From positions 2,090,882-2,114,881 of the forward strand of contig NZ_AKGD01000001.1 of NCBI RefSeq assembly GCF_000271305.1: a stretch of 24,000 bases of DNA. Reading direction: 5' to 3'. A program made the translations under genes and the position numbers. Origin of the DNA: Hydrocarboniphaga effusa AP103 (GTDB lineage Bacteria > Pseudomonadota > Gammaproteobacteria > Nevskiales > Nevskiaceae). Position 1 is the stretch's first letter. Each line of letters begins with the position of its first letter. This document shows, in pieces, positions 4,266 through 20,154 of this stretch. A model generated the notes under the pieces. The model was given only the letters and a program-made list of their open reading frames with translations, did no database searches and was not told the origin of the DNA.

Positions 4266-5981
4266 TCACCGATGCCCGGCTCCTGCGGCCGCGCTCCCAA
4301 ACTTGTCCCGGACGCGCGGTGGAATGTCGGCCACGCGCACGAACACCAGGCCGTCGAGCGTGCTGCCGAAATCGGCATCGACGTTGAAGCCCGCGAAGCG
4401 TCCGTTGAGTTCGACGTAATGACGCACGAGCACCGGCAGGCCGACACCGCGTTCGAGCCTGGCGAGCACGCGCGAGAGCAGCGACGGATCGGCCAGTGCC
4501 GACACCACGTTGCGCGTCTCCTCGGCCGCGCGCGGCTGTTGCGGCGGCGTGCGCGGCCGCACGAGCGCGGCGAGTTCGGCATCGCTGTGATGCGCCGACA
4601 GCGCCGCCTCGATGAGCGCCTGGCCGGCCGCGCTGTAGCTCGGGCTGATGCTCACCGGACCGAACAGGCAGCGGATCTGCGGCTCGCGATCGAGCAGCGT
4701 CGCGATGCCGCTCCAGAGCAGGCGCAGCGCGCGGAAATTGCGCTGCCATTCCGGGCGCACGAACGAGCGGCCGAGCTCGATCGCCGGGCCGATGCGGCGC
4801 AGCAGGCGCTCGTCGTAATCGAACAGCGTGTGCGTGTAGAGCGCCGCCACGCCGCGCCTGGGCGTCAGCGCCTCGGTGAAGCCGAGCCGGTAGGCGCCGA
4901 TGATTTCGCGCTGCGTCTCGTGCCAGACGAACAGGTGTTCGTAGTGCGCATCGAAGGCATCGAGATCGCGAGCACGGCCGGTGCCTTCCTGCACCTGGCG
5001 AAAGCTCAGCTCGCGCAGCCGGCCAATCTCGAGCAGCAGCTGCGGAATCTGCGCGGCGCGCGCCCGAAAGACGCTGAAATTGGGCTGCGAGACGAGCTTG
5101 CACTCCACCGGCAGCGCAGCCACTTCGGCGGCCAGCGTGGCGGCGTCGATGGGCTCGGCGAGCGGCGCCTGCGCAGTGGCCGGCGCGAGCCGCGAACGGC
5201 CGCCGAGCGAATAGGTCAGCAGCCGCAGGTAAGCGGTCTGCGTCGAAGACTCCAGGCGTTCGAGTTCGGCCGCCTTGATCGGCTCGCCGACGTGCAGCTT
5301 CACCACGTCGCCGCGCTGGCGCAGCAGGTCGCGCGCGAGGCAGGCGGTGCGCAGGCGCGGATGCAGCGCCCCGGCGAGCAGCGAGCCCCAGGCGGCATGG
5401 CCGCCGATGCGCATCGGCAGAATCTGCGCCCCGCTGCGCCGCGCGAGCATCGCCACGCTGTCGGCCCAGGGCGGATCGGCGATGCGCTGGCCGCGCCAGT
5501 CCCAGCGGCTGACTTCGCCGGCCGGAAACACCACCAGGGCGCCGCCGTCCTTCAAATGGCGCATCGCCATGCGCAGGCCGGCCGCGCTCGCGCCGCGGCG
5601 GAACACGTCGATCGGGGCGATCAGCGGGGCGATCTCGGGCACGCGTCGCAGCAGCGTGTTGGCGAGCAGCAGCAGGTCCGGTCGCCGCGGCAGCAGCAGG
5701 TCGGCCAGCACCAGGCCGTCGGCGGCGCCGTAGGGATGATTGGCGACGATGATCAGCGGGCCGCTCTGCGGAATCTGGCTCGGCGAGCCCGAGGCCAGCA
5801 CCCAGCTCAGATCGATCTTCTGCAGGGCGAAGCGGACGAAGGCCTGCGGATTCAGGCCGCTCGGGGTGTCGCGGTACAACCGCGCGATCCGGCGCAGGCC
5901 GGTCGCGCGTTCGGCTATCGCGCTGAGCCAGCCCAGGCCGGGCGGGCGCGGCAGCGACAGCAGGGTGTCAGCCTCGGACAT
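4266..5981 (-). CDS. bifunctional acyltransferase: N-terminal PlsC-type lysolipid O-acyltransferase plus C-terminal OlsB-like GNAT N-acyltransferase (OlsF-like aminolipid synthase)
   Basis: ATG at 5979-5981 with AAGGAG 6 nt upstream. N-terminal half carries the acyltransferase motifs VANHPYGAADG and FPAGEVSR. C-terminal half (RLRELSFRQVQEGTGRARDLDAFDAHYEHLFVWHETQREIIGAYRLG) looks like OlsB / 'hemolysin-like' N-acyl amino acid synthases. The domain order matches what I recall for Serratia OlsF. Confidence 0.75.
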   Translation of the reverse strand: MSEADTLLSLPRPPGLGWLSAIAERATGLRRIARLYRDTPSGLNPQAFVRFALQKIDLSWVLASGSPSQIPQSGPLIIVANHPYGAADGLVLADLLLPRRPDLLLLANTLLRRVPEIAPLIAPIDVFRRGASAAGLRMAMRHLKDGGALVVFPAGEVSRWDWRGQRIADPPWADSVAMLARRSGAQILPMRIGGHAAWGSLLAGALHPRLRTACLARDLLRQRGDVVKLHVGEPIKAAELERLESSTQTAYLRLLTYSLGGRSRLAPATAQAPLAEPIDAATLAAEVAALPVECKLVSQPNFSVFRARAAQIPQLLLEIGRLRELSFRQVQEGTGRARDLDAFDAHYEHLFVWHETQREIIGAYRLGFTEALTPRRGVAALYTHTLFDYDERLLRRIGPAIELGRSFVRPEWQRNFRALRLLWSGIATLLDREPQIRCLFGPVSISPSYSAAGQALIEAALSAHHSDAELAALVRPRTPPQQPRAAEETRNVVSALADPSLLSRVLARLERGVGLPVLVRHYVELNGRFAGFNVDADFGSTLDGLVFVRVADIPPRVRDKFGSAAAGAGHR

Positions 5982-6951: not shown

Positions 6952-7828
6952 GGCGGGCGTGCGCGCATGCTAACCAAGCTCGGCAATGTGGGCTTCTTTC
7001 TGGGTCGGCTGCGATCTGTTGAAAGGAGAATTTTCCGCAGGCTCACTCGATGTGATTTCGCTTCTGAAGATTGTGGCGCGCGCACAACAACTGAATGTTT
7101 TCTGCTGTAAGCGATGTCCCGCCTCGGGAGAATGGCACGATATGGTCAAAGTGCAGCTCATCCTCTGCCTCGCACAGACGGCATTTGCCACCGTCACGCT
7201 TCCAGACTTCGAGCTTCACTGCGGTTGGAATAACTCTTCTCCGCTCTGCGTCGATATGGACAGGCTCTGCCAGATCATCGTCGCCCTTCACAGCAATGAG
7301 CCGAAACTTAAATACTGTCCGGTGATCGTCGCGCTCCTGCCATGAGTCAACGAGGTGAAAGATGCCGTTGTATGACCATATGCCCGACTTGATCTTCTCG
7401 TAGACCCTTACCCGTTCCGGGGAACTCCGCCCCGCCTTGAAGGCCTGCGCAGCCTGGTGAAACTTGCCGTTCTGCGTTCGTTTTCCAGAAGGCAGCATTT
7501 CGGGTTGGTCAACGACCTTGGGATTGGGGCAGGAAGCGTCTTTCGGGTGATCGTGTCCTTCGTAGACCAAGACTGTTCCGCCTTCCTCCAGTCGGTCCTT
7601 GTATGGAGCATTAGGCCGAACCGACATGAGAATGACGGAATGATCGCCGCCGAGCCCATAGTTCATTCCGCGCTGCAGGTTTACACCTTCACGCCGACAC
7701 ATTTCGTTGTGGGAAAGAATGTTGTCCGGCATATGTCTCTGAATTCGGGCTAAGTAATTTGATTGCGGGGTAGGGCGGCGATAGCCCTTTCAAACGTTGA
7801 TGCACTTCGGTGACTCAACCAATTTTCA
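6952..7828. other. low-GC islet (probable horizontally acquired insertion) carrying one gene
   Basis: Hand counts of G+C per 60 nt: 34 (7141-7200), 32 (7321-7380) and 30 (7741-7800), against 45 (6601-6660) and 37 (7861-7920) in the flanking genes. I found no integrase, tRNA or convincing terminal repeats. Confidence 0.6.
7043..7732 (-). CDS. SRA(YDG)-domain / HNH nuclease fusion: putative type IV modification-dependent restriction endonuclease
   Basis: The C-terminus is a ββα-Me HNH: CRLCEAEDELHFDHIVPFSRGG...NIQLLCARHNLQKRN. The N-terminal 150 aa follow the SRA pattern: GVNLQRGMNY, SVILMS..YKDRLEEGGTVLVYEGHD, PERVRVYEKI and GIWSYNGIFHLVDSWQERDDHRTVFKFRLI (compare UHRF1 ...[26 protein letters not shown], from memory). 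Confidence 0.8.
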   Translation of the reverse strand: MPDNILSHNEMCRREGVNLQRGMNYGLGGDHSVILMSVRPNAPYKDRLEEGGTVLVYEGHDHPKDASCPNPKVVDQPEMLPSGKRTQNGKFHQAAQAFKAGRSSPERVRVYEKIKSGIWSYNGIFHLVDSWQERDDHRTVFKFRLIAVKGDDDLAEPVHIDAERRRVIPTAVKLEVWKRDGGKCRLCEAEDELHFDHIVPFSRGGTSLTAENIQLLCARHNLQKRNHIE

Positions 7829-8245
7829 CTACACGGCCCGCGCAATCTCGTCGTAGCCGCGATTCAGGAATTCGAGCAGGCAGAAGCCGTTGCCGAACGG
7901 GTCGGCGAAGTGCGCGATGCGGCCCCAGCTTTCGGTGCGCATCGCGTCTTCGATCACCGCGCCGGCCTGCATCGCGCGATCGATCGCGGACGGCAGATCG
8001 TCGACGACGAAGTCGAGATGCACGGGTGTCCAGTGTCGCTCGTAACGGCGTGTCTCGCCGCTCGCCGAACAGGCTCGCGAGCCCGCTGCTTTGACCAGCA
8101 GATAAATCGGCGCCTCGGCCCCGAGCAGCTCGATGCCGCCATCACCGAAGCGACGCCCGATGCTCAGCCCGAGAGCCTGCGTGTAGAACGCGGTTGCGCG
8201 CGGCAGGTCGTCGAAGTCGATGTTGACGAGCAGCCGCGCGCCCAT
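7829..8245 (-). CDS. VOC-family (glyoxalase / bleomycin-resistance fold) protein
   Basis: The internal ATG at 8243-8245 gives 138 aa: MGARLLVNIDFDDLPRATAFYTQALGL...HLDFVVDDL...FADPFGNGFCLLE, a typical paired βαβββ VOC pattern. The track's 399-aa ORF is this gene plus an out-of-frame read-through across yhhQ. Confidence 0.8.
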   Translation of the reverse strand: MGARLLVNIDFDDLPRATAFYTQALGLSIGRRFGDGGIELLGAEAPIYLLVKAAGSRACSASGETRRYERHWTPVHLDFVVDDLPSAIDRAMQAGAVIEDAMRTESWGRIAHFADPFGNGFCLLEFLNRGYDEIARAV

Positions 8246-8967
8246 CAGCCGTGCGCCTTGCGCTCGCCCTCGTCGCGCAGCGAGAACGGGTTGAAGCTGG
8301 TGTGGGCGTCGTAGGTATCGACGCCTTCGGCGCGCTTGAGCGCGTTGACGACGACGTAGGTCACCGGCGTCAGCACCACTTCGAGCAGCACCTTGAACGC
8401 GAAGTTGAACAGCACCGCGGCGATCAGCGCCTTGCCCGACCACAGGCCGAGGAAGGCGATAGGGTAGAACAGCGCGGAGTCCGCGAACTGGCCGACCACC
8501 GTCGAACCGATGGTGCGCGACCACAGGTGCTTGCCCTGGGTCCAGACCTTCATCTTCGCCATCACGAAGGAGTTCAAGAAGTCGCCGACCCAGTACGCGA
8601 CCATGCTGCCGACGACGATGCGCCAGGTGTTGCCGAACACGGTTTCGAGCGCGGGCTGCAGCGTCTTGTTGTACGGATCGTCGGCGACCGGCATGGCGAG
8701 CACCACGTAGGTCATCACGGTGGCGAAGATCATCGCCGCGAAGCCGGCCCAGATCGCCCGGCGCGTGCGCGCGTAGCCGTAAACCTCGGTCAGCACGTCG
8801 CCGAAGATGTAGCCGATCGGGAAGAACAGGTTGCCGGCCGAGAACGCCAGCGTGCCGAGCAACGGGAAGTCGTACTCGCAGACCTTGCCGGGCCCGATCA
8901 GGTTGGAGCACAGCAGCACGGCGACGACGCCGCCGACGAAGAAGTCGTAGTAGCGGAAGCTCTGCAT
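8245..8967 (-). CDS. yhhQ: queuosine-precursor transporter, YhhQ/DUF165 (VUT) family
   Basis: Starting at ATG 8965-8967 gives MQSFRYYDFFVGGVVAVLLCSNLIGPGKV...FFPIGYIFGDVLTEVYGY..R..IW.GF, the conserved YhhQ core, with multiple TM helices. Its stop overlaps the VOC start (minus strand TGATG at 8243-8247). Confidence 0.85.
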   Translation of the reverse strand: MQSFRYYDFFVGGVVAVLLCSNLIGPGKVCEYDFPLLGTLAFSAGNLFFPIGYIFGDVLTEVYGYARTRRAIWAGFAAMIFATVMTYVVLAMPVADDPYNKTLQPALETVFGNTWRIVVGSMVAYWVGDFLNSFVMAKMKVWTQGKHLWSRTIGSTVVGQFADSALFYPIAFLGLWSGKALIAAVLFNFAFKVLLEVVLTPVTYVVVNALKRAEGVDTYDAHTSFNPFSLRDEGERKAHG

Positions 8968-9050
8968 GGGTCGAATCGTTCGGAGCGCGGGCGCGCGTCG
9001 ACACAACCTTAACAGAGCTCGCCGCCAAAACCTCTAGCCGAAATGCGGGC

Positions 9051-10742
9051 CTAGCGCTTCGCCAGCAGCAAGCTCTCCTCGATCGCCTCGCGTCTCCACT
9101 GCGCGGCCTGCGGCAGGCGCGTGCGCAGGTCGCCGGATTCCGGTGCGCGCAGCCAGCGCGATTGCTTGAGCCGGCGGATGATGGCGGGGATGTCCGAGGT
9201 CGGCTCGATGCGCTGGTTCCAGAGTGCGAGCAGCTGGTTCACCGACTGTTCGCGCGATTCGGGCGTGTCGGGCGTGGAGATGTTGAGCGGCAGCGTGGGC
9301 GTGACGAGGATGATCAGCGATTCCTGGCGGCGCAGGTCGGTGCTGCGCTTGGTGAACCAGTTCGCCACCGGCACGTCGCCGACGCCGGGCACTTTCGAAA
9401 ACGACTTGTCGTTGACCTGCTCGGACAGCGCGCTGAGCACGAGCGTCTGCCCGAACTCGACGTCGGCCGTCGCTGAAACCGATTGCCGGAACGTGGTCAG
9501 CGAGCTGTCGAAATTGCCGATCTGATCCTGCGACAAAAACGAGCGCGCCGCATCGAGGTTGAACACCACGCGCTTGTCGTCGATGAACTCGGGCGTGACC
9601 TTGAGCTGTACGCCGACGTCGATCGGTTGCAGCTGGCCGAGGTTGATGCCGCTGACCGCGACGTTGAGTGTGCGCCCGGCGAAGAACTGCGATTCGCGGC
9701 CCAGGTGCGCGGTGATCGAAGGCCGTGCGACCACGCTGTAATACTGGCCCGAGTCGTTGAACAGGTTGAGGCTGTAGTCGAGCTGCGGCGTCGAGATCTG
9801 CGAGGTGATCGTGCGCGTGCTTTCGCGGCCCAGGCTGCCGCTGATCTGCGAGAGCGTATTGGTGTAGCCGTACAGCACACGCAGGCCGTCGAACAGGTTC
9901 ACGCCGCGATTGGCCTGGTCGAGCACCGAGTTCAGCAGGATCGTCACTTCGACCACGACCTGGTTCAGCGCGCTCGCCGGATTCTGTGCCAGCGGCGCGA
10001 GCGGAGCCGAGTCGCCGCCTTCGTCGCCGATCGGCGTTTGCCGAACGGCCGGCGCCACTTCGAGATATTCGGCGACGCGGCGCATGGCGTAGCGCGCATC
10101 GGCATCGTCTCCGGTGGCGACGAGCTTTTGCGTCATCGCTTGCGCTTCGGGCTCGCCTGCGACTGCGAGCGCAAACGCATTCAAGCGGATCGACTCGCGC
10201 TGCTCGGGCGCGAGCGCGAAGCTGCGTTCGGCCGCGAGACGCATCAACGGCAGATCGCGCCGATAGTACGAAGCCACGCCGAGGCCGTAGAAGGCTTCCC
10301 AGCGGCGCGGCTGATCGAGCACGGCTTCGGCGAAGCGTGACTGCGCCGTGCGGTAGTTGCCGCGTTCGAGCTCGATGTAGCCGAGTTGCAGCAGCGCCCA
10401 GTAATTGCCGGGCGCGAAGCGCTCCGCGTTCGCATACCCGACGGCCGCGAGATCGAGCCGCGCGCGATCGCGTTCACGGCCGATGCCTTCTTCGGTCAGC
10501 GCATGCAAGAACTGCAGCTGGCCATTGCGCAGATCCTGTTGTAGCAGGCGCGCGATCGGTGCCTGCGCCTGTTCCCACTGGCCGGAACGCAGCGCGCGTT
10601 CGGCCAGTGGCCAGTCGGACATCGGCTCATTACTCGTCTTGCGAGCCGCATTGGACGCGCAGCCGGAGAGCGCGAGCGTGGTGGTGAAGACCGCGCATCG
10701 AATCAGCGATGCGCGCAGCTTGCGAGGGTTGAGGCGAGGCAT
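9051..10742 (-). CDS. outer-membrane lipoprotein: N-terminal TPR (pilotin-like) domain fused to a secretin C-domain
   Basis: ATG at 10740-10742 gives MPRLNPRKLRASLIRCAVFTTTLALSGC (lipobox). This is followed by about 220 aa of TPR-like repeats, then the secretin core from NQVVVEVTILLNSVLDQANRGVNL to GQTLVLSALSEQ...KVPGVGDVPVANWFTKRS...ESLIILVTPTL. The track start at 10781 is a TTG inside an 11-bp tandem repeat. Confidence 0.8.
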   Translation of the reverse strand: MPRLNPRKLRASLIRCAVFTTTLALSGCASNAARKTSNEPMSDWPLAERALRSGQWEQAQAPIARLLQQDLRNGQLQFLHALTEEGIGRERDRARLDLAAVGYANAERFAPGNYWALLQLGYIELERGNYRTAQSRFAEAVLDQPRRWEAFYGLGVASYYRRDLPLMRLAAERSFALAPEQRESIRLNAFALAVAGEPEAQAMTQKLVATGDDADARYAMRRVAEYLEVAPAVRQTPIGDEGGDSAPLAPLAQNPASALNQVVVEVTILLNSVLDQANRGVNLFDGLRVLYGYTNTLSQISGSLGRESTRTITSQISTPQLDYSLNLFNDSGQYYSVVARPSITAHLGRESQFFAGRTLNVAVSGINLGQLQPIDVGVQLKVTPEFIDDKRVVFNLDAARSFLSQDQIGNFDSSLTTFRQSVSATADVEFGQTLVLSALSEQVNDKSFSKVPGVGDVPVANWFTKRSTDLRRQESLIILVTPTLPLNISTPDTPESREQSVNQLLALWNQRIEPTSDIPAIIRRLKQSRWLRAPESGDLRTRLPQAAQWRREAIEESLLLAKR

Positions 10743-10777
10743 GGCGTGAAGGTCCGTAAGCAAGTCGAAAGTCGAGC

Positions 10778-10802
10778 GCAAATCAATCGCAAATCAATCG
10801 CA
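10778..10802. repeat. 11-bp tandem duplication, 2.3 copies (gcaaatcaatc)
   Basis: gcaaatcaatc gcaaatcaatc gca is read directly from the sequence. It spans the stop codon (10794-10796) of the 12-Cys gene and the short spacer before the secretin gene. Confidence 0.9.
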
Positions 10803-11315
10803 GCGATACAGGTTGGGACGGCCGATGCGATCCCAGAATCCGGCGCGATGGCTGTTGCCCGAGCAGCAGAAGTTGCGATCGTTGCGATGCACGCCGGCAC
10901 CGTCGCGTGCGCAGTAGTCCGGGCCACGTACGGTGCCGGTGGTATTCTCCACTTCGTCGTTGACGTTGCGCGTCCACTGGTAGCTCCACACTGCGCGATT
11001 GACCGCGCGAGTCCACTCCGCGCTGCAGCGATTGTTCTCGGGCGAGGTGCCGCACATCACGCCGTTCGGATTCGCGGCGCAGCAGGGGTCGTGCGTCATG
11101 CTGCCTCCGCTGACCTTGCAGTTGGCGCGATCGGCGCCGTTGGACGCCGGCAGGCACATCGCAACGCCGGCGAACTGGCCTTGATGAAAGCCCCCGCATT
11201 GCTGGCCGACGGCGCCGAAGCAGCGTTCCGCGAGCGCCGGCGTAGCACTGCCGAACAGCGAGAGCAGCAGCAGGGAGCCCAGCAATCTGCGAGCGTGCGT
11301 GAATATCGTCTTCAT
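10794..11315 (-). CDS. secreted 12-cysteine protein, unknown family (paralog of 14731..15243)
   Basis: ATG at 11313-11315. Signal peptide MKTIFTHARRLLGSLLLLSLFGSATPALA. The mature part has 12 Cys, and they can be aligned one-for-one with those of the 14731..15243 product. Confidence 0.7.
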   Translation of the reverse strand: MKTIFTHARRLLGSLLLLSLFGSATPALAERCFGAVGQQCGGFHQGQFAGVAMCLPASNGADRANCKVSGGSMTHDPCCAANPNGVMCGTSPENNRCSAEWTRAVNRAVWSYQWTRNVNDEVENTTGTVRGPDYCARDGAGVHRNDRNFCCSGNSHRAGFWDRIGRPNLYRCD

Positions 11316-11343
11316 CGAAAATCTCCGTTGAATGCTGCGCTTT

Positions 11344-11772
11344 TCAGCGCAGGCGCTTGACGGTCGAGCCGTCGGCGGCCTGCAAGGTGTTGTCGTCGAC
11401 GATCTTGATCAGCATGGTTTCGCTCGCATCGGTCTTCTCCGATTCGGGCTCCTTCTGGTCGCGTTCGATCTTGAGTTCGAAGCCGGCCTTGTCGGATTTG
11501 CCGACGCTGTAGCGGCCCTGGTTCGACTGCTGATCCTTGAGCGGCTTGAACGCGCTGTCGCGAATCGCGGTGACGTAGCGGCCATCGGGACGGAACTCGA
11601 TCACCGTGGTTTCGGTGATGCCGGTTTCCTTGTCGCTGACGCTGCTGCTCCAGCTGCCGAGCAGCAGCTTGATGGCATCGATGGGCTTTTGTGCGAGCGC
11701 GATCGGCTGTGCGGACGACAGCGCGATAAAGGCGGCCATCGTGAGCACCGCTTTTAAACTGAGTTTGCGCAT
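11344..11772 (-). CDS. small secreted protein, lipocalin-like (tentative)
   Basis: Signal peptide MRKLSLKAVLTMAAFIALSSAQPIALA. The mature start ...LLLGSWSS... and the alternating β-strand-like pattern resemble bacterial lipocalin-like domains. There is an acidic Lys/Glu-rich insert, ERDQKEPESEKTDASE. Confidence 0.6.
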   Translation of the reverse strand: MRKLSLKAVLTMAAFIALSSAQPIALAQKPIDAIKLLLGSWSSSVSDKETGITETTVIEFRPDGRYVTAIRDSAFKPLKDQQSNQGRYSVGKSDKAGFELKIERDQKEPESEKTDASETMLIKIVDDNTLQAADGSTVKRLR

Positions 11773-11824
11773 GAACGTGACTCCGGTGTGAGAACGGTGG
11801 TTCAGAGGGGATTCGAGTGGGTGT

Positions 11825-14701
11825 TCAAGGCGCGGCTTCCAGCACCAGGCTCACGCTGCCGCTGACGGCCAGGTTGTCGCCGCCATCTGGATGGCCGTTG
11901 CCGAGGGAGATGCAGTTCAGGCGCAATGCATGCGAGCCCGGCTCCAGCAGGCCTTCGGTGGGGCCGGACTGCTGCAGGCCTTCGCGCTTATCGGCGGTGG
12001 CCACGAACAGGCGGTCCAGAGACAGCTCCAAGTTGGAATCGCCACGCCCGGCGGTGGCGCTACCGCTGAAGCCGTTGATGCGATAGCGCAGCGGCTTGTC
12101 GCCTTCGACGAGGAACTGCACGTAGGCGGAACCGTTGCCCTGGCTGTCGGTGCCGAATCCTTCCGGTGTCGCTGGCACCGAGCCGCTGGTGTCGCAAGTC
12201 AGGGTGATGGCGCCGACGCGGCCGTCGCTGCGATCGAGGTTGAACGAGGCGCTGCCGACGGTCGATGCGCTGCGGCCTTCGCCACTTTTCTCGGCGTGCA
12301 CGGTGAAGCTGCCATTGCTGCGGAAGCCGGTATCGGGCGTGTCGGTCAGCGAGGCGCGTTGAATTTCCGCAGTGGTGGAAAAGACGCTGCCGCAACTCGC
12401 TCCGTTGCTGCACGACTGCGCGCGTGCGAAGGCCGACACACCGGTTTCTTCGAGCAGTGCGCTCGCCGTCGGCGGCGGTTCCACGGTGACGCTCACCGTG
12501 CCTTGCGCAGTGCCGCCCTTGCCGTCGCTGACGGTGTAGCCGAAAGCGTCGTCGCCGACGAAGCCGAGGTTCGGAATGTAGCGAACCGAATCGCCGGCGC
12601 CGACGATCTCGGTACGGCCGTTCTGCGGCTGCGTCACCGCATCGACCGTCAGCGCATCGCCGTCCGCATCGGTGTCGTTGGCGAGCACGTCGATGACGTG
12701 TCCGCCGCCGTTGCCGACGACCTGGGCGGCGTCGGCGACGGCGGTCGGCGGCTGGTTCTCCGCACGCGCGGTATCGAGCTCGAGCGCGGTCAGCTCGAAC
12801 GGCAGCTTGCGCGTGATCACGAAGGCGCTGAACTCGCCGACTTCGCCTGCATTGGGCGCGGTGAAATCGAACGCGAAGTGGGTTTGATCGTCGCTCGCGG
12901 TGAGGCGCATCACCTCGTTGAGCCCGCCGGAGCGACGCAGCAGCACCACGTCCTTGACGTTGTAATCGCCCAGGAACGAAACGTTGTCGGAATCGAGATC
13001 GAGCTCGAAATGCACCACGTCGCCGGTGACGAAACCGGCGCGATCCGCCGTCAACACGCCGGTCGGCGATTTGGCGAGATCGACCTGCGACAGAAACTCG
13101 AGTCCGGTGAGCCGAATGATGTTGAAGAGCTTGGCCAGGCCTTCGATGCCGGTGCCGAGTCCGGCGCGAAACTCCGCGAAGATGCGGTAGTTGGATTTGT
13201 AGAGCGGATCGGCGAGCTGCGTGGTCTTGGGCGCGAAGCTGCCGAACAGGCGCGGACCGGCCTTGGCTTGAAACGCGTTGAAGCGCAGCGATTTGAGCAG
13301 CGGGTTGCCGAGACTCGCGCCGACGGTGGCCGAGGCGAGCACGCTCGGTTCGAGCCGCAGGTCTTCGATGCCGGGCAGGTTCAGCGTCGGCGTGATGGTG
13401 TTGGTGAGGTCGCCGGCTGCGGCCACGAACATGCAGTCGCCGTTGCACTCCAGGCCGACGCGGCCGTTGAAGCGGGTTTCGTTCTTGAACGAAATGCCCA
13501 TCGTCGCCACGGTGATCTTGCCGCCGGCTTCGAGCGATACGCCGACCGGAACCAGGCCGCTGATGATCATCGACAGCGCGCCGCCCACCGGTACGCGGAA
13601 GGTGAACAGATCGGCCTTGCATTCCACCTTGCCTTCGAACGCGGCCACGATGTTGAGCCCGCCTTCGACGCTCGCCACCGGCGAGGCGCGCACGAGCAGG
13701 CGTTCGAGCCCGCGCGCTTCGGTGTAGAGCACGTCGAGGGTCGGGTTGATGGTCACGCGCAAGGCCGGCGGAGCCAGGATCGAAATCGGCAGCGGCGAGC
13801 CTTCGCGAAAATCCGGAATGAAGGTTTCGCAGCCGCGAGCCAGCGTCGAAGTGCCGGCCGCTGCACCGACCTTGGCGACCAGCGCATCGGCGCTCGCAGC
13901 GGCGGCCGAGGCGCGTGGCGTGAACGAAAACGTGTTGCCCTCGCGAGCGATCTCGTAATCGGCCGCGATCTCATCGGGAATATCGACCGGCGCTTGCGAC
14001 AGATCGAAGACCTGGTTGATTTCCAGGCCCGGAAACAACTCGTTCAAGGGTGCGAGCGCGAGCGTGAGTTCGATGCCTTCGGGACGCGTTTGCGTGGAGA
14101 CCACGCGACCGGCGACCGGCTCCGATCCGGTGCCGACGACGAGCGTTCCGGGCTCGGGCGCGGTCACGCCGCTGACGATCACGGTGTAGGTGTTGTCGAG
14201 GCCGGGCTCGGCGTCCGGATCGGTTTCGACCGCGCCGCGAACCACTTGCGAGTCGTCCACCAGCAGCGTGTCGTCGGCGACGCCGACCACGGCCGCCAGC
14301 AGCGGAGCCGACCGCAGCGTTCCGGTGGTTGCGACGATCTGGCTCGATCCGCTCGCCGCTTCGGCCTTGAGCAGGCCGGTGGAGTCGATCGACAGGCGAC
14401 CGCTGTCGGAACTGCTCCAGCTCACCGGCGCTGCGATCGTCGCGCCGGACGCATCGAGAACGCGCGCGTGCAGCAGGCGAGTCTGGCCGCGTTCGGTCAG
14501 CAGCAGACCGGTCTCGATGATCTCGATGCGAGCGGGCACGGCAGCGACGGGTGGATCGACCGGCGGGGTGTCGTCGCCGTCGTCGTTGTTGCCTCCGCCG
14601 CCACTGCAAGCCGCCAGCGTGGCCAGCGCGAGTGCTGCGAGCAGCGAGCGCCAACCCGGGCGTCGCGCATGGCGATCCCTGCGATCCTTGTCGATGAACA
14701 T
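11825..14701 (-). CDS. large lipoprotein (958 aa): Big_2-like Ig domain, an unrecognised core of about 450-500 aa, a cadherin-like domain and a C-terminal β-rich domain
   Basis: ATG at 14699-14701 with AAGGAA 7 nt upstream. Lipobox LALATLAAC followed by a Gly/Asp-rich linker. Big_2-like stretch ARIEIIETGLLLTERGQTRLLHARVLDASGATIAAPVSWSSSDSGRLSIDSTGLLKA. Cadherin-like stretch VIDVLANDTDADGDALTVDAVTQPQNGRTEIV...VRYIPNLGFVGDDAFGYTVSDGKGGTAQGTVSVTV. The 169 Arg-rich residues upstream in the track ORF overlap the neighbouring gene and were discarded. Confidence 0.8.
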   Translation of the reverse strand: MFIDKDRRDRHARRPGWRSLLAALALATLAACSGGGGNNDDGDDTPPVDPPVAAVPARIEIIETGLLLTERGQTRLLHARVLDASGATIAAPVSWSSSDSGRLSIDSTGLLKAEAASGSSQIVATTGTLRSAPLLAAVVGVADDTLLVDDSQVVRGAVETDPDAEPGLDNTYTVIVSGVTAPEPGTLVVGTGSEPVAGRVVSTQTRPEGIELTLALAPLNELFPGLEINQVFDLSQAPVDIPDEIAADYEIAREGNTFSFTPRASAAAASADALVAKVGAAAGTSTLARGCETFIPDFREGSPLPISILAPPALRVTINPTLDVLYTEARGLERLLVRASPVASVEGGLNIVAAFEGKVECKADLFTFRVPVGGALSMIISGLVPVGVSLEAGGKITVATMGISFKNETRFNGRVGLECNGDCMFVAAAGDLTNTITPTLNLPGIEDLRLEPSVLASATVGASLGNPLLKSLRFNAFQAKAGPRLFGSFAPKTTQLADPLYKSNYRIFAEFRAGLGTGIEGLAKLFNIIRLTGLEFLSQVDLAKSPTGVLTADRAGFVTGDVVHFELDLDSDNVSFLGDYNVKDVVLLRRSGGLNEVMRLTASDDQTHFAFDFTAPNAGEVGEFSAFVITRKLPFELTALELDTARAENQPPTAVADAAQVVGNGGGHVIDVLANDTDADGDALTVDAVTQPQNGRTEIVGAGDSVRYIPNLGFVGDDAFGYTVSDGKGGTAQGTVSVTVEPPPTASALLEETGVSAFARAQSCSNGASCGSVFSTTAEIQRASLTDTPDTGFRSNGSFTVHAEKSGEGRSASTVGSASFNLDRSDGRVGAITLTCDTSGSVPATPEGFGTDSQGNGSAYVQFLVEGDKPLRYRINGFSGSATAGRGDSNLELSLDRLFVATADKREGLQQSGPTEGLLEPGSHALRLNCISLGNGHPDGGDNLAVSGSVSLVLEAAP

Positions 14702-14730
14702 GTTGCGATTCCTTTTGCTTGATGCGGCGC

Positions 14731-15243
14731 CTAGCGGCAGCGCAGCTTGTTGATGCCCTGCAGATCGCGTTCGGCGAGCGCGCTGGCCGAGCGAGAGCAG
14801 CACCAGCGCTCGTCGCCGGGCGCGACGACGGCGCCGGCCGGGGCGCACAGGGCGTTGAAGTCGGCGATGCCGCTGCGATTGGGTTTCTGCGGATCGAGCT
14901 TTCGCGTCCAGTACAGGCCGTGCGAGGTGCGTTGCTGCGACTTCTCCCATTCGTAGGCGCAGTCGGCGGCGACACCGGGCTTGCCGCCGCAGCCCTGGCC
15001 CTGCGGATGCGCGGCGCAGCAGACGTCGTGCTCGATGCTGCCCGCGTGCACCATGCATTCGAGCTGCCCGCCGGCCGGCTTGCAGTAGGCCGGCTGGCCG
15101 CCGCCTCCGGTCGCGCAGCCCTGCCCGGCGGCGCCGAAGCAGGCGCCCGGCACGGCGGGCGACACGGCCGTCTGCGCCGGCGCTGCGGTAGAGCCGAGCA
15201 GCAGGCACAGCACCAGGACTGGAATGGAAGCGATAAGTCGCAT
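14731..15243 (-). CDS. secreted 12-cysteine protein, unknown family (paralog of 10794..11315)
   Basis: ATG at 15241-15243. Signal peptide MRLIASIPVLVLCLLLGSTAAPAQT. Motifs shared with the paralog: CFGA.GQ.C, GS..HD.CCA..P.G..CG, C..EW, WTR, C....GA.V, CCS, and RC at the C-terminus. Confidence 0.7.
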   Translation of the reverse strand: MRLIASIPVLVLCLLLGSTAAPAQTAVSPAVPGACFGAAGQGCATGGGGQPAYCKPAGGQLECMVHAGSIEHDVCCAAHPQGQGCGGKPGVAADCAYEWEKSQQRTSHGLYWTRKLDPQKPNRSGIADFNALCAPAGAVVAPGDERWCCSRSASALAERDLQGINKLRCR

Positions 15244-15277
15244 GGCGGGCAGTGGTGGTTTGAAGGCCCGGGCCGGC

Positions 15278-15784
15278 TTACATCACGTAGTACTTGCCGC
15301 TGCACGTCGAGTAATAAACGCTCGCGTAGCCGCAGGTGGGCGTGCCGCCGTCGTAGTTGCAGTGCTCGGCGCGGAAGATCAGCTTGGCGCGGCAGGAGCG
15401 GGCTTCGGCGGCCGGCACGACGAAATCGGCCAGCGCGGACAGGATCGATTCGGCCCTGGGTGCCAGCGATACCGGCTTGAACCTGGCGCACTTCTGCGCT
15501 TCGGCGGGCAGCTTGGCGAGCGGGGTTTCGACGCCGGCCTTGCCGTCGACGAACAGCCCGCTGCTGACGATCACGCCTTTCTTCACGTGTGCCCGCGCTT
15601 CGAGCACGCCGGCCGGCGTCTTTGCCGACGAGGTCACCTGCTGGCCATCCGGCAGCTTGGTCTTGGTGCCGGCTTCGAGCACTTCGACGTCGTAGTCCTC
15701 GTTCACGCATTCGGCGCGGGCGGGTCCGGCGAGCCCGAGCAGCAGGGCGGCAAGCGGCAGCAGCAGTTTGAATTCGAGGGACAT
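15278..15784 (-). CDS. secreted 6-cysteine protein, unknown family (first gene of the secretin operon)
   Basis: ATG at 15782-15784 with GAAGGAG 7 nt upstream. Signal peptide MSLEFKLLLPLAALLLGLAGPARA|EC. I recognise no family. Confidence 0.7.
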   Translation of the reverse strand: MSLEFKLLLPLAALLLGLAGPARAECVNEDYDVEVLEAGTKTKLPDGQQVTSSAKTPAGVLEARAHVKKGVIVSSGLFVDGKAGVETPLAKLPAEAQKCARFKPVSLAPRAESILSALADFVVPAAEARSCRAKLIFRAEHCNYDGGTPTCGYASVYYSTCSGKYYVM

Positions 15785-15817
15785 GGGCTTCTCCTTCACG
15801 AGGGGGCTGCGAGATGT

Positions 15818-15841
15818 GGAGCCCGATCGACGATCGGCTCC
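15818..15841. repeat. imperfect inverted repeat GGAGCCCGATCG-A-CGATCGGCTCC
   Basis: Read directly from the sequence; the arms differ by one extra C. It lies 34-57 nt upstream of the operon's first start codon. Confidence 0.6.
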
Positions 15842-15860
15842 GGCACCCCGACGCTAAGGC

Positions 15861-15889
15861 CCGAAGCCGCGCGAATCCGGACCGAAGCC
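15861..15889. promoter_or_regulatory. direct repeat CCGAAGCC x2 with 21-bp register
   Basis: CCGAAGCC at 15861-15868 and 15882-15889. In addition, GCCCGATCGA occurs at both 15821-15830 and 15887-15896. A regulatory function is inferred only from the position in the divergent intergenic region. Confidence 0.3.
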
Positions 15890-15897
15890 CGATCGAT

Positions 15898-15919
15898 TTC
15901 CGACCATTTCCCGACCATT
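15898..15919. promoter_or_regulatory. tandem 11-bp direct repeat TTCCGACCATT / TCCCGACCATT: candidate OmpR/PhoB-type wHTH binding site
   Basis: Two adjacent 11-mers, 10/11 identical, lie between the divergent regulator and the secretin operon. The 11-bp periodicity matches how OmpR/PhoB-family winged helices bind tandem half-sites (established). Assignment to this regulator is inference. Confidence 0.4.
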
Positions 15920-15987
15920 GCGGCGGCGCCGTTTCGCGCGCCCACGCGAGCGGTCAAAATCCGTCTCCGATCAGAGACATTCGAGTC

Positions 15988-18717
15988 GTGACCGAGCCAC
16001 TCGCCGCCGACAGCCCCGACGCCAAGGCCCGCGCCCCGCGCTGGCGTTTCGGCGATTGCGTGCTCGACGGCCGCACGCTCGAACTCACGGTGCGCGGCCA
16101 GCTCGTCAAGCTCGAGCCCAAGCCGCTCGACATGCTGATGTTCCTGCTGCGCCACCCCGACGAGGTGCTGACCAAGGACGAGCTGCTCGAAGGCCTGTGG
16201 CCGGGCCGCATCCTGTCCGAGTCGGTGCTGACCAAGTGCGTCGCCAAGCTGCGACAGGGGCTCGGCGACGAAGGCCAGGCGGTCATCAAGACCGTGCACG
16301 GCTTCGGCTACCGGCTGATCGCGCCGGTGACGGTCGAGCACGACGCCGCGCCGATCGCCGCGACCACCGAGCTGCGCGCCGGCCTGTCCGCGGGCGGACA
16401 TCCGCCGCAGCGGCCGCTGTGGGTGCTGCGCGAGGCGATCGGCGCCGGCGGCGGCGGCGAAGTCTGGCTCGCCGAACACGCCAAGACCGGCGAGCGCCGC
16501 GTCTTCAAGTTCGCCACCGACGCGGCCGGGCTGTCGGCGCTCAAGCGCGAGGTCACGCTGTTCCGGCTGCTGCAGGCTACCTACGGTCCGCGCGACGACC
16601 TGCTGCGCCTGCTCGACTGGAATTTCGAAACGCTGCCCTACTTCGTCGAGGCCGAGCACGTCGCCGGCGGCAGCCTGCTGCAATGGAGCGAGCGGCGCGG
16701 CGGCCTGGCGGCGGTACCGGTCGCCCAGCGCATCGCGCTCGCGATCCAGCTCGCCGAGGTACTCGCAGCCGCGCATGCGGCCGGCGTGCTGCACAAGGAT
16801 TTGAAGCCTTCGAACGTGCTCGTCGCCGGCAGCGAGGCCGAACCGCGGCTCAAGCTCGGCGATTTCGGCAGCGGCCGGGTGCTCGATCTCGCGCGGCTCG
16901 AACGGCTCGAAATCACCCGGCTCGGCTTCACCGCGATGCTCGACGACGACGAGGCCGGCACCACGCCGCTGTACCTCGCGCCCGAGTTGCTCGCCGGCCA
17001 GCAGCCGACCGTGCAGTCCGATCTCTACGCGCTCGGCGTGATGCTCTACCAGCTGCTGGTCGGTGACTGGCGCCGGCCGCTCGCGCCGGGCTGGGAGCGT
17101 ACGCTCGACGACGAGCTGCTGCGCGAGGACGTCGCCGCGGCCGCGGCCGGCGATCCGCAGCGGCGGCTCACCAACGCGGCCGAACTCGCGCGTCGGCTGC
17201 GCGAACTCGACGAACGCCGCAGCCAGCGCGCGCACCAGCGCGAGCTCGAAGCCGAGGCCGCCACGCTGCATGCGGCGCTCGAACGCAGCCGCCACCGGCG
17301 CAAGCTGCAACGCGCGATCGCCGCCGTGCTCGCGCTCGGCCTGGGCCTGTCGAGCTGGGGCTTCTGGAACGCGCGGCAGGCGCAGCACCGGGCCGAAGCC
17401 GCCGCCGCCGAAGCGCGCGCCGCGGTGAGTTTTCTCGGCGAAGACGTGCTCGCGGCCACCGATCCGTTCGGTGGCGGACGCCCGACCCTGAGCATCAAGG
17501 GCCTGCTCGACGAAGCCGCGCCCAGGCTGGCGACGCGGCTCGCCGACTACCCGGCGATGCGCGCCGAAATGGGCCTGGCGATGGGTCGCGCCTACGAAGG
17601 GCTCGGCGATTGGCCCAAGGCGCGCGAGCGGCTCGAAGTGGCGCTCGCCGAGGCCGAAGCCGTGCAGGGGGCGGATTCCGAACTCGCGCTGACGATCGCC
17701 GACCGGCTCGGCTCGCTCGCCCTGCTGCAAAGCCGCTACGACGATTCCGAGGCCTTGTACCGGCGCGTTTACGAGACCCATCGCACGAAGTTCGGCGAGC
17801 TCGATGCGCGCACGCTATCCGCGCGCGACGGCCTGGCCTGGCTGCAATACGAGCGCGGGCGCTATCCGCAAGCGGCCGCGCTGTACCAGCGGCTCGTGGA
17901 CGATTATCGCGGAGTCGATGAGCTTGGCCTCACGAGCGCGCAGTGGAGCCTGGCCGACTGCTATCTGGAGCTCAATCGCACGCCCGAAGCCGAAGCGCTG
18001 ATGCGCGAGGTCGTCGCCACCACGAGCCGCTTGCAGGGCGCGAAGCATCCGCGCGCGCTCTGGCAGCGCACCACGCTCGGCGACGCGCTGATGATCCAGG
18101 GCCGCTGGGACGAAGCCGCGGCGCTGTTCGACGAAGCCTACGAAGGGCTCGCGGCGACGGTCGGCGAAACCCATCCGTACACGCTCACGGCGCTGCACTA
18201 TCGCGGCCAGCTCCTGCTCGAACGCGGCGATCCGGTGGCCGCCCTGCCGCTGCTGCGCCGCGCCTACGAGAACCGCGTGCTCGCCCATGGCGTCGATCAC
18301 GTCTGGGCGCGCTATTCGGCCAATCGGGTGGGCGAAGCGCTCGTGCAGCTCGGGCTGGCGAGCGAAGCACTGCCGCTGCTCGAACGCGCGCACGAGCAGA
18401 GTGTGAAAGCGCAGGGACCGGATCATCCCAACGTGCTGCTGATCCAGCGCACACTCGCCGATGCGCTGATCGCGCTCAAGCAATACGACCGTGCCGACGG
18501 TTTGCTCGTCGACGGCCTCGCGAGAGCGCAGCGTACGCTGCCCGAGTACAGCCTGCGCATCGGCTACCTGCACGAAAGCCTCGGTCATTTACGCAGCCTG
18601 CAGAAGCGAAAGGATGAGGCACGGGCGCAGTACGAATCGGCGCGGGTGCTTTACGAGAACGCGATCGGCGCCACGCATCCGCAGACGCTGAAGCTCACGG
18701 CGCTCGCGCAGCGCTGA
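15988..18717 (+). CDS. membrane-tethered transcriptional regulator: OmpR/CadC-type winged-helix DNA-binding domain, Ser/Thr protein kinase, TM helix and TPR domain
   Basis: wHTH: WRFGDCVLDGRTLELTVRGQLVKLEPKPLDMLMFLLRHPDEVLTKDELLEGLW...VHGFGYRL. Kinase: IGAGGGGEVW, RRVFKFA, HKDLKPSNVLV, DFGSG and LYLAPE. A single TM helix AIAAVLALGLGLSSWGFW is followed by about 430 aa of TPR repeats. The start is uncertain: GTG 15988 is favoured over ATG 15814 because 15814-15987 is full of repeats and low-complexity translation. Confidence 0.8.
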   Translation: MTEPLAADSPDAKARAPRWRFGDCVLDGRTLELTVRGQLVKLEPKPLDMLMFLLRHPDEVLTKDELLEGLWPGRILSESVLTKCVAKLRQGLGDEGQAVIKTVHGFGYRLIAPVTVEHDAAPIAATTELRAGLSAGGHPPQRPLWVLREAIGAGGGGEVWLAEHAKTGERRVFKFATDAAGLSALKREVTLFRLLQATYGPRDDLLRLLDWNFETLPYFVEAEHVAGGSLLQWSERRGGLAAVPVAQRIALAIQLAEVLAAAHAAGVLHKDLKPSNVLVAGSEAEPRLKLGDFGSGRVLDLARLERLEITRLGFTAMLDDDEAGTTPLYLAPELLAGQQPTVQSDLYALGVMLYQLLVGDWRRPLAPGWERTLDDELLREDVAAAAAGDPQRRLTNAAELARRLRELDERRSQRAHQRELEAEAATLHAALERSRHRRKLQRAIAAVLALGLGLSSWGFWNARQAQHRAEAAAAEARAAVSFLGEDVLAATDPFGGGRPTLSIKGLLDEAAPRLATRLADYPAMRAEMGLAMGRAYEGLGDWPKARERLEVALAEAEAVQGADSELALTIADRLGSLALLQSRYDDSEALYRRVYETHRTKFGELDARTLSARDGLAWLQYERGRYPQAAALYQRLVDDYRGVDELGLTSAQWSLADCYLELNRTPEAEALMREVVATTSRLQGAKHPRALWQRTTLGDALMIQGRWDEAAALFDEAYEGLAATVGETHPYTLTALHYRGQLLLERGDPVAALPLLRRAYENRVLAHGVDHVWARYSANRVGEALVQLGLASEALPLLERAHEQSVKAQGPDHPNVLLIQRTLADALIALKQYDRADGLLVDGLARAQRTLPEYSLRIGYLHESLGHLRSLQKRKDEARAQYESARVLYENAIGATHPQTLKLTALAQR

Positions 18718-18979
18718 GCACCAGGTCTGCGGCGACGTATAGCGGCACCGGGCGCAGGTCCTTGCGGATGCAAGCGGACATGGAGAAGACTGACGACAGA
18801 ACGGGCTCAATGGACTGCACGGCCACCAAAGCGTGATCGTCGGCGCGCCTGCTGTTTCGGACGCGCAGGTTCAGCCGCCGCCGGCCGCGATGTCGCCGAT
18901 GCCGCAGTTCGTGTGGAGATGTCGACGGCTTGCTTCGACGAATGGACAGGCTGTTTCAAGTGGCGCAAAGGAAAATGTG

Positions 18980-19660
18980 ATGCGGAGGGAGATGAAAGGT
19001 GCTGAAGCTGCCGGTATGCGGGCGCTGATCGGCAGGTGCGGGCTTGCAGGCGCACTGTTGCTCAGCGGCGGCTGCGCTCCGCTCAGCAAAGACCAGTGCA
19101 AGACGGCGAACTGGCAGCAGATCGGTTACCAGAGCGGCGTCAACGGCCGATCACCCGTGCGCTACGAGGAAGAGCGTCAGGCCTGTGCCGAGCATGGCAT
19201 CGGCTCCGACGAAACCGGGTGGAAGATCGGTTACGCGCAGGGGCTCGGTGTTTATTGCACGGCTGCGAACGGCTATGACGTCGGCCGCCATGGTGGCAGC
19301 TACGATGAGGTGTGCCCGCCCGATCTCGATGCCCGTTTCCGTCCGGCCTATCAGGATGGCCGCCATGTTGCGGATCTGCTCAATGCACTCAACGAGCGAC
19401 GTTCTCGCCTGGACGACATCGGTCGCATCCTCGCCGACGACGACAAGCGCGCCCGCGACTACGTCGCCCTGATGCGCAAGAACCCGCAACCGCCGCCGCC
19501 GCCTCCACAGCTGCTCGAACGGCGTGCCCGCCGCGACCTGGAACGCGAGTACGACTATCTGCGCAACGAGCATGAGGGACTGCGCAGGGATTTCGAGCAG
19601 AACGACGGCGAACTCAGCGCACGATATGCGGTGCCGGCGATGGGCTACGACGGTCCCTAG
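18980..19660 (+). CDS. DUF2799-family lipoprotein
   Basis: Lipobox ALLLSGGC, then C.TANWQQIGYQSGVNGR...ACAEHGI...GYAQGLGVYC...G......Y.EVCPPDL...F, the repeated W/G..G..G-plus-Cys pattern I recall for DUF2799. ATG 18980 has AAGGA 7 nt upstream; ATG 19016 is an alternative giving a shorter signal peptide. Confidence 0.7.
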   Translation: MRREMKGAEAAGMRALIGRCGLAGALLLSGGCAPLSKDQCKTANWQQIGYQSGVNGRSPVRYEEERQACAEHGIGSDETGWKIGYAQGLGVYCTAANGYDVGRHGGSYDEVCPPDLDARFRPAYQDGRHVADLLNALNERRSRLDDIGRILADDDKRARDYVALMRKNPQPPPPPPQLLERRARRDLEREYDYLRNEHEGLRRDFEQNDGELSARYAVPAMGYDGP

Positions 19661-19851
19661 CGGTTGCGTGGCGGGCACCTCGGTTCGACATCCCGGTCAA
19701 ATGCGCGTACCGTGCCCCGCGCAAGTATCAGGCAGTGTATTCAGCTAGTTGGCGCCACAGCGGTTCTTCGGCGCGAAATTCCAGATGCGTTCCTTGACCG
19801 TTTGCGCCCAGCGGGCGGTTGGCCCGTTTCTCTTCATCAGGAACACATCTC

Positions 19852-20064: not shown

Positions 20065-20084
20065 TCGCTGCGTGCGGAGTCGTA

Positions 20085-20113: not shown

Positions 20114-20154
20114 ACGCGGCCCGGCCGCGTTCCATTCTCAGGCAGGAGATTCCC

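Follow-up and report, generated by a model that had tools for sequence, protein, structure and literature searches.

The element described here is a gene for a secretin fused to tetratricopeptide repeats (TPR), hereafter called TPR-secretin, which lies in a stretch of 24,000 nucleotides of the Hydrocarboniphaga effusa AP103 genome (contig NZ_AKGD01000001.1, positions 2,090,882 to 2,114,881); this whole 24 kb stretch is referred to as the window, and positions are counted from its first letter. Secretins are the outer-membrane end of envelope-spanning machines (type II and type III secretion systems, T2SS and T3SS; type IV pili, T4P; Tad pili; filamentous phage), and their N-domains serve as the coupling device. 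The window protein is made of a signal peptide with a lipobox, a TPR domain, a linker, a complete compact secretin core and a helical tail, and has no N-domain. It belongs to a large uncharacterised family of secretins that carry TPR in place of the periplasmic N-domains, and exported proteins are enriched beside the genes of this family.

The gene is located on the minus strand at 9051-10742 and encodes 563 amino acids (aa) plus a stop codon from an ATG at 10742. A longer open reading frame (ORF) starts from an alternative upstream TTG at 10781; the ATG was preferred because homologues align from it. The gene was considered as real and conserved on two grounds: its G + C content at third codon positions (GC3) is 0.84, matching the bias of the surrounding coding sequence, and 113 homologues of its product were retrieved, among them a Hydrocarboniphaga “hypothetical protein” with 100% identity.

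Domain architecture and family of the TPR-secretin

Five segments were delimited in the protein, all encoded on the minus strand. The signal peptide and lipobox, read from the sequence, occupy aa 1-28 (10659-10742) and end in L-S-G-C28, with Ala as the +2 residue. They are followed by a TPR superhelix of 12 helices, or about six repeats, at aa 43-229 (10056-10616; AlphaFold2, Foldseek and family profile), by a low-complexity Gly/Asp/Pro/Ala linker at aa 230-260 (9963-10055; AlphaFold2 and alignment A1), and by an all-beta secretin core at aa 261-485 (9288-9962; Pfam, Foldseek and invariant motifs). The last segment, aa 486-563 (9054-9287; AlphaFold2), is a C-terminal tail of three helices in the position of the secretin S-domain.

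The AlphaFold2 monomer was produced using a family alignment of 45 sequences (alignment A1). Twelve helices were predicted at aa 43-229 with a per-residue confidence (pLDDT) above 90, and only beta strands at aa 261-483; between them, aa 233-256 are disordered (pLDDT below 50), and the linker varies in length and sequence in alignment A1. The tail helices span aa 494-511, 518-527 and 546-562, the final one with a pLDDT above 90, and the conserved positions of the tail in alignment A1 are W508, P514 and an invariant D538.

The assignment of the beta part to secretins is based on sequence profiles, on fold and on motifs. The Pfam model Secretin (PF00263) matches aa 335-484 with 76.1 bits (cutoff 27.5), and a family profile matches the secretins 8jvb, RcpA and GspD almost equally (61, 59 and 59 bits). 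Foldseek searches against the Protein Data Bank (PDB) returned 8jvb, PulD (6hcg), GspD (5wq7), InvG, RcpA (8odn) and pIV (7ofh) with E-values of 1e-13 to 6e-9; the alignments to the cores of RcpA, pIV, GspD and InvG extend over 223-353 columns and, for the small secretins RcpA and pIV, take in the entire resolved core. The canonical motifs of secretins are invariant in all members aligned (G280, N282, Y323, N329, A339-R340-P341, F353, G356, G377, P384, P458 and P482). Pfam and NCBIfam scans of the window protein gave no match to Secretin_N, N0, STN, BON or AMIN domains, and aa 261-335 contain no helices and were therefore considered as barrel and not as a hidden N3 domain.

For the helical part, the single window sequence gives only a sub-threshold Pfam match (TPR_16, 22.6 bits). 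With the family profile, aa 102-184 align repeatedly to consensus TPR proteins with per-repeat i-Evalues of about 1e-7 (9qhb, overall E-value 1.6e-48), and Foldseek matches this part to consensus TPR superhelices (8chy, TMt 0.60). The initial annotation had read the gene as a secretin with a TPR lipoprotein fused at its N-terminus and apparently without N0-N3 domains. All the peptides that it quoted are present in the translation: LALSGC-ASN at aa 23-31, a TPR stretch at aa 112-177, NQVVVEVTILLNS at aa 260, KVPGVGDVPVANWF at aa 451 and LIILVTPTL at aa 476. The fused architecture is borne out by AlphaFold2, Foldseek, Pfam and the family profile; residues 40-270 are TPR and linker by both structure prediction and profile searches, in agreement with the claimed absence of N0-N3, and the C-terminal region scores as a secretin by Pfam, by sequence match to solved structures and by Foldseek.

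Proteins sharing the TPR plus secretin arrangement form a widespread family. A profile search of 1.84 billion representative proteins yielded 623 clusters (50% identity) at E-values of 1e-30 or lower; the best 150 clusters all have E-values below 1e-96, mostly over nearly the full profile length, with protein lengths mainly of 530-810 aa. Relatives were found in 260 species genomes in a scan of one genome per species. The best 80 of these 260 include Nevskiales, Steroidobacteraceae, Lysobacterales, Zhongshania, Thiolinea, Burkholderiales, Methylophilaceae, Sphingomonadaceae and Caulobacterales; the distant named members are from Halarcobacter (Campylobacterota) and Elusimicrobia, the others from Alpha-, Beta- and Gammaproteobacteria.

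In a Pfam analysis of 69 relatives, Secretin was found in all 69 and TPR models in up to 49, while Secretin_N, STN, BON and AMIN were found in none; one relative has an extra SPOR domain. The lipobox cysteine (C28) is at least 90% conserved in a wider alignment of 117 sequences. Three short family hits resembling TPR-less “core-only” secretins (P0228, P0249 and P0272) were rejected as N-terminally truncated or chimeric gene calls, and were not considered as a split architecture. Members bear generic names in databases (hypothetical, TPR, PilF, TadD, CpaC, GspD). None of the curated NCBIfam models reaches its cutoff for the window protein, and the 45 members scanned match the same secretin and TPR models. 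In the open-access literature, no description was found of a TPR-secretin fusion, of an N-domain-less secretin family or of a ricin-lectin/secretin/trypsin operon such as those described below.

Genes next to TPR-secretins in the window and at related loci

Genomic context was surveyed in the window and 80 related loci (the best 80 of the 260; 81 loci in total, about 1.41 Mb), in which ORFs were clustered into families, and in 11 loci with called, Pfam-annotated genes; loci are cited by their numbers (L001 and following). Five genes lie upstream of the window secretin on the same strand, separated by gaps of 28-52 nt, and each encodes a signal peptide or a lipobox. The one next to the secretin (10794-11315, minus strand), 51 nt upstream of it, encodes a secreted protein of 173 aa with a signal peptide and 12 cysteines, and is a candidate cargo gene. 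A 142-aa secreted protein with a signal peptide and no cysteine comes next (11344-11772, minus strand); its homologues are found beside the secretin in 9 loci. The third gene (11825-14701, minus strand) encodes a lineage-specific candidate cargo, a 958-aa lipoprotein with the lipobox LAAC-S and one Big_9/cadherin-like domain (Big_9, 76 bits). Its ATG is at 14701, 29 nt beyond the stop of the upstream gene, and the gene is missing at the same position in a sister Hydrocarboniphaga metagenome-assembled genome (MAG; L001). A stretch of 449 aa of this lipoprotein has 50% identity to the product of a gene located about 9 kb from the TPR-secretin in a Piscinibacter MAG (L034). The fourth gene (14731-15243, minus strand) encodes a second 12-Cys secreted protein of 170 aa with a signal peptide, paralogous to that of 10794-11315 (phmmer E-value 1e-20; hidden Markov model E-value 9e-47). 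The first gene of the putative operon (15278-15799, minus strand) encodes a protein of about 170 aa with a signal peptide and 6 cysteines, which has a homologue in L003. The products of 10794-11315, 11344-11772, 14731-15243 and 15278-15799 have no Pfam match.

The alignment of the 12-Cys family shows 12 conserved cysteines and an invariant GGSxxHDxCC. The protein of 10794-11315 was modelled by AlphaFold2 with a pLDDT of 82 and a global score (pTM) of 0.72, and Foldseek gave no match to it among solved (PDB) structures. In 27 of the 81 loci, which belong to the alpha, beta and gamma classes, a 12-Cys domain is encoded no farther than 7 kb from the secretin, and mostly no farther than 2 kb. The 12-Cys proteins of Burkholderiales have about 150 aa more at the N-terminus, which form an additional domain; an assignment of that additional domain as carboxypeptidase-regulatory-like was dropped, as Pfam gives it only a sub-threshold bMG3 match.

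Divergent from the putative operon, on the plus strand at 15814-18717, lies a gene for a 967-aa regulator in which Pfam recognises a winged helix (Trans_reg_C) together with a Ser/Thr kinase domain and numerous TPRs. Its start is only 14 nt from the divergent start of 15278-15799, so that one of the two starts is probably mis-set. Homologues of this regulator, or other regulators of the Trans_reg_C/STAND type, are found beside the secretin in 25-33 loci. The genes downstream of the secretin encode a Vut_1 (YhhQ-like) transporter and a glyoxalase. That of the transporter starts 44 nt from the secretin stop (9006-9051), a synteny shared only by the closest relatives (L001-L004); given this spacing and the lack of a minus-strand terminator-like site, the transporter may be co-transcribed. 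Neither a sigma-70-like promoter nor a minus-strand terminator was found in 7700-16000, and the limits of the operon therefore rest on gene spacing.

Two other genes of the window, both on the minus strand, were noted. That at 7043-7732 encodes a 229-aa protein with SRA (SAD/SRA) and HNH nuclease domains, a combination suggestive of a modification-dependent restriction enzyme; it has no relation to the secretin. That at 4266-5981 encodes a 571-aa protein with an N-terminal acyltransferase domain and a C-terminal GNAT domain (Acetyltransf_5), an arrangement which we take to be that of the bifunctional ornithine-lipid synthase OlsF.

Nothing resembling a T2SS, T4P or Tad component was found within the 24 kb window, as the initial annotation had noted for inner-membrane machinery, and the survey extends this statement to the 80 related loci. 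No ATPase, platform or pilin family of T2SS, T4P or Tad type recurs in the window and these loci, and the 11 Pfam-annotated loci have no ATPase or platform genes. A search of the 1.41 Mb for the Walker A pattern of T2SS/CpaF-type ATPases returned two helicases and, as the sole exception, a single CpaF-like gene situated 8 kb from the secretin of L079.

Two classes of neighbours recur. The first consists of regulators (Trans_reg_C + kinase + TPR, BTAD + NB-ARC + TPR, TIR + TPR, and histidine kinases with response regulators), and the second of exported proteins that no Pfam model matches. Among the ORFs within 2 kb of the secretin, 31% are signal-peptide-like, vs 14% of those beyond 4 kb (p = 2e-7, by a crude heuristic). 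A more permissive signal-peptide scan of the flanking ORFs was discarded as uninformative, since it flags 58% of background ORFs. The upstream gene overlaps the secretin start by 4 nt in L081, L083, L085, L086 and L087: in L081 (Solimonas), this gene encodes a 464-aa protein with a signal peptide, and in L083 a 100-aa signal-peptide protein with 4 cysteines (family F22), homologues of which occupy the same position in the alphaproteobacterial loci L043, L028, L049, L052 and L054. One MAG (assembly prefix JAZKFO01) has two paralogous secretins with differing sets of neighbours (L019 and L025).

In three loci, two from Methylophilaceae and one from Aquabacterium, the gene just downstream of the TPR-secretin (12139-16881 in L058, 11897-13465 in L072 and 12578-13222 in L082) ends with a PEP-CTERM signal (VPEP, a hydrophobic stretch and basic residues). 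The most widespread weak NCBIfam match of the TPR domain is to PrsT, a lipoprotein of the PEP-CTERM system (38 of 45 members). A link between TPR-secretins and the passage of PEP-CTERM proteins across the outer membrane is possible.

Eight systems were sampled in a distant clade of the family. Directly upstream of the secretin, six of them encode a Ricin_B_lectin protein of 900-2626 aa (P0111, that is L085 and L086; Halarcobacter, L084; L087, L089, L090 and L092), and in three of these six cases the gene overlaps that of the secretin by 4 nt. In a seventh system (L088), the Ricin_B_lectin protein gene is found about 2 kb downstream of the secretin (14105-21016); a gene for a pentapeptide-repeat protein with a signal peptide stands right after the secretin there (12030-12875). 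A gene for a small trypsin-like protease is located 3' of the secretin in L084, L085/L086 and L087. Homology extends over most of the length of four of the giant proteins, and the five whose N-termini were examined all start like a signal peptide. The only domain recognisable in these giants (from Campylobacterota, Elusimicrobia and metagenomes) is the ricin-type lectin near the C-terminal side, and a homologue search with the Halarcobacter giant returned only a “ricin-type beta-trefoil lectin domain protein” and two unnamed proteins. In the eighth system (L091), the gene of an 809-aa TPR-secretin is directly preceded by genes for a DsbA/ScsC-like thioredoxin and a Tectonin-domain protein (7053-9982), and a gene for a protein of more than 1400 aa overlaps downstream; the presence of the DsbA/ScsC-like gene fits a disulfide-bonded cargo.

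Proposed export function and alternative explanations

The reading we retain, and to which we give about even chances, is that the TPR-secretin is a stand-alone, self-targeting outer-membrane secretin that exports co-encoded periplasmic proteins, its lipid-anchored TPR domain replacing the N-domains. Both the self-piloting and the platform independence of this protein, already proposed in the initial annotation, are inferred. The protein would first cross the inner membrane by Sec, be lipidated at Cys28 and be carried to the outer membrane by the Lol pathway; as judged from its sequence, Lol sorting to the outer membrane would be expected by established rules since Cys28 is followed by Ala at +2. 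The TPR domains would then form a ring around the periplasmic outer wall of the barrel, where the separate pilotins TadD and PilF are located, as seen in cryo-EM structures such as that of RcpA-TadD: tethered by the lipid at its N-terminus and by a linker of about 25 residues to the base of the barrel at its C-terminus, the TPR domain would lie against the barrel wall. In this place it would serve as an integral pilotin or scaffold, probably through binding of the conserved helical tail at the C-terminus of its own or an adjacent subunit; by analogy with RcpA-TadD, this tail (W508, P514, D538 and the last helix) may be regarded as the obvious candidate contact for the TPR groove.

The assembled ring would release or expose at the surface proteins that have already reached the periplasm via Sec or Tat and have folded there with their disulfides. 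Candidate cargo would be, in the window, both 12-Cys proteins together with the 142-aa protein and the 958-aa lipoprotein, and, in distant relatives, the giant ricin-lectin proteins. This role is proposed because of genomic context. The exported proteins consistently encoded next to the secretin, which the initial annotation had overlooked, are the strongest clue to function; the even cysteine counts of the neighbours, the DsbA-like gene of L091 and the presence of lectin, Calx-beta, GDSL-like and trypsin domains are all compatible with proteins located outside the cell. The TPR ring may double as a cargo dock, and the TPR domain could equally well be a cargo dock rather than a pilotin. Expression would be set by the adjacent winged-helix/kinase/TPR regulator.

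A broader proposal is made tentatively, at clearly less than even chances. TPR-secretins might constitute the outer-membrane part of an unrecognised, widespread two-step export route which operates without pseudopilus, ATPase or inner-membrane platform, is self-piloted by the fused lipidated TPR domain, and releases folded, disulfide-bonded, co-encoded proteins ranging from Cys-rich proteins of 140 aa to lectin giants of 2600 aa, as a secretin-based counterpart of two-partner secretion.

Several points weigh against an autonomous export function. To our knowledge, the secretins characterised to date all depend on a partner, either an inner-membrane machine or the assembly complex of a phage, and we know of no unaided opening of the closed secretin gate, i.e. 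without pseudopilus, needle or phage. The evidence concerning machinery covers the loci, and a partner machine elsewhere in the genome is possible. The neighbour families vary and mostly have no annotation; their description as cargo is guesswork based on their signal peptides, cysteines and lectin-like domains, and they could instead be accessory subunits. The lipobox is present in about 75% of the close homologues, the signal peptide of the remaining quarter being a plain one, and lipid-anchored self-piloting is therefore not the whole role of the TPR domain. Confidence in the predicted secretin fold itself is only moderate (monomer pTM 0.48, pLDDT below 50 in aa 280-331).

A first alternative, which we consider unlikely, is that of a secretin with a fused pilotin serving a T2SS, T4P or Tad machine of the usual kind, whose genes would lie at another place in the genome, and in which TPR would replace the pilotin and the platform would be contacted by other means. 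The ties of all secretins known to us to an envelope-spanning machine argue for it. So do the facts that RcpA, the best sequence match among solved structures, has a TPR lipoprotein, TadD, as its pilotin, that the RcpA of Pseudomonas aeruginosa is already without N3 (PMC10499894), and that the TPR part gives weak co-linear PilW matches in 37 of 45 members. However, the TPR-secretin keeps no N-domain with which to contact GspC, PilP or their equivalents, and in the window and the 80 loci its gene is never found in or next to a cluster encoding such a machine, the CpaF-like gene located 8 kb away excepted. It has instead its own conserved neighbours, with which it is often translationally coupled, and the two paralogues of a single MAG have different neighbour sets.

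The same neighbours can also be considered as structural or accessory subunits of a new envelope complex, whose secretin would serve in uptake, in the display of an anchored lectin or adhesin, or in envelope signalling; we hold this for rather improbable. The 4-Cys protein of family F22, translationally coupled upstream of the secretin, has the size of an accessory factor, and regulators are abundant at TPR-secretin loci. A pentapeptide-repeat protein follows the secretin in L088, and in cyanobacteria a protein of this kind is reported to co-purify with PilQ nozzles (PMC12475490). Against this, neighbour families change across lineages while the secretin is conserved, which is the pattern expected of interchangeable cargo and not of fixed subunits, and many neighbours have lectin, Calx-beta, GDSL-like or trypsin domains typical of extracellular proteins.

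The export of a non-protein polymer such as an exopolysaccharide, on the plan of PgaA, BcsC or PelB, is very doubtful. This plan is indeed the same, TPR followed by an outer-membrane channel, the TPR domain has weak matches to PgaA (9 of 45 members), BcsC (9 of 45) and PrsT (38 of 45), and secretins have been implicated in slime export in a paper of 2025 (PMC12475490). But the window and the 80 loci share no recurrent family of glycosyltransferases, synthases or Wza/Wzc-type proteins, none is present in the 11 annotated loci, and the recurrent neighbours are signal-peptide proteins. Lastly, a decayed or domain-swapped remnant without channel function, as the loss of parts thought necessary for function and the low AlphaFold2 confidence in aa 280-331 might suggest, is hardly credible and was excluded because of conservation: the protein is maintained over hundreds of clusters with invariant canonical motifs, high GC3 and conserved operons.

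A conserved secretin family which is devoid of N-domains, has no co-located machine and is encoded beside exported proteins raises the questions of whether a secretin can act alone and of what opens its gate. If the stand-alone export reading is true, it would describe a route of protein export that is new, simple and present in many Proteobacteria of the environment as well as in Campylobacterota and Elusimicrobia, would give a function to several families of secreted proteins, including the 12-Cys family and the giant ricin-lectin proteins, and would provide structural biology with a natural covalent secretin-pilotin fusion. If the TPR-secretin docks to a remote machine instead, it would represent a mode of coupling that needs no N0/N3 domains.

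Comparison with known systems

The window protein belongs to the secretin superfamily PF00263 by the Pfam threshold and by its predicted beta-core fold, and was compared with the defined classes of this superfamily. The T2SS model GspD (TIGR02517, cutoff 351 bits) gives 53 bits, on the C-terminal 119 aa only; no gspC-M gene is present in the window, and no such family recurs in the 80 loci. The models PilQ (TIGR02515), SctC (TIGR02516) and MshL (TIGR02519), with cutoffs of 284, 238 and 250 bits, give 45, 39.5 and 38 bits, likewise on the C-terminal part only, and these cutoffs are reached by none of the 45 members scanned. As for the RcpA/CpaC class, the protein has no VirB9/BON-like N-domain and there are no tad genes nearby.

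Separate TPR lipoproteins (PilF/PilW/Tgl, TadD) are the pilotins of T4P and Tad secretins. The pilotin of T4P is a six-repeat TPR lipoprotein of about 200-250 aa, with which the window TPR domain is co-linear, lipoprotein signal included: the window protein has both a lipobox (LSGC28) and about six TPR repeats (12 helices in aa 43-229, with matches to consensus TPR). The PilW/PilF model (TIGR02521) aligns aa 21-211 with profile positions 5-199 of 234, at 19.7 bits vs a cutoff of 154. Weak co-linear matches of this kind were obtained for 37 of 45 members (best E-value 4.5e-10), and among the matches shown none reaches the cutoff. By score, the window protein is thus not a member of PilW; PilQ, the secretin of this system, differs from it in having AMIN, N0 and N3 domains and in working with PilMNOP.

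The liposecretins HxcQ (Hxc T2SS of P. aeruginosa) and BfpB (bundle-forming pilus of enteropathogenic Escherichia coli) possess an N-terminal lipobox and are thought to reach the outer membrane without a separate pilotin. The window secretin also has its own N-terminal lipobox, by sequence, and its lipidation is putative. Unlike it, HxcQ and BfpB have retained domains of the N0/N3 type, carry no TPR and belong to complete T2SS or type IVb pilus operons; the window protein has neither N0/N3 domains nor such an operon.

In its parts, the Tad pair RcpA-TadD is the known system that comes closest. TadD is a TPR lipoprotein whose groove binds the C-terminus of RcpA (P. aeruginosa, PDB 8odn; PMC10499894). 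A compact secretin core and a TPR lipoprotein partner are common to both cases, and RcpA is the best match by sequence among solved structures for the single window protein, whereas in a profile search the similarity of the core to RcpA is no better than to GspD (58.9 vs 58.6 bits). In contrast to the window protein, which is one polypeptide and is without these elements, the secretin and the pilotin of the Tad system are separate chains, a VirB9-like N-domain is retained in RcpA, and the pair is encoded in a tad locus with ATPase, platform and pilins.

In plan, the TPR-secretin resembles PgaA, BcsC and PelB (exopolysaccharide) and Slam (surface lipoprotein translocon), which combine an N-terminal periplasmic TPR domain and a C-terminal outer-membrane channel in one polypeptide, use no pilus or piston and are encoded beside their substrate pathway; there are weak matches to PgaA, BcsC and TPR_Slam at the level of the TPR domain. 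The channels of these proteins are monomeric beta-barrels, unrelated to the multimeric secretin double barrel. TpsB, the channel of two-partner secretion, is an Omp85 protein with POTRA domains and has no homology to the TPR-secretin. The resemblance between the two systems is one of genetic logic only: the channel gene adjoins, and is in many cases coupled to, that of a very large exoprotein (TpsA in two-partner secretion) which depends on Sec, as is seen for the giants of the distant clade.

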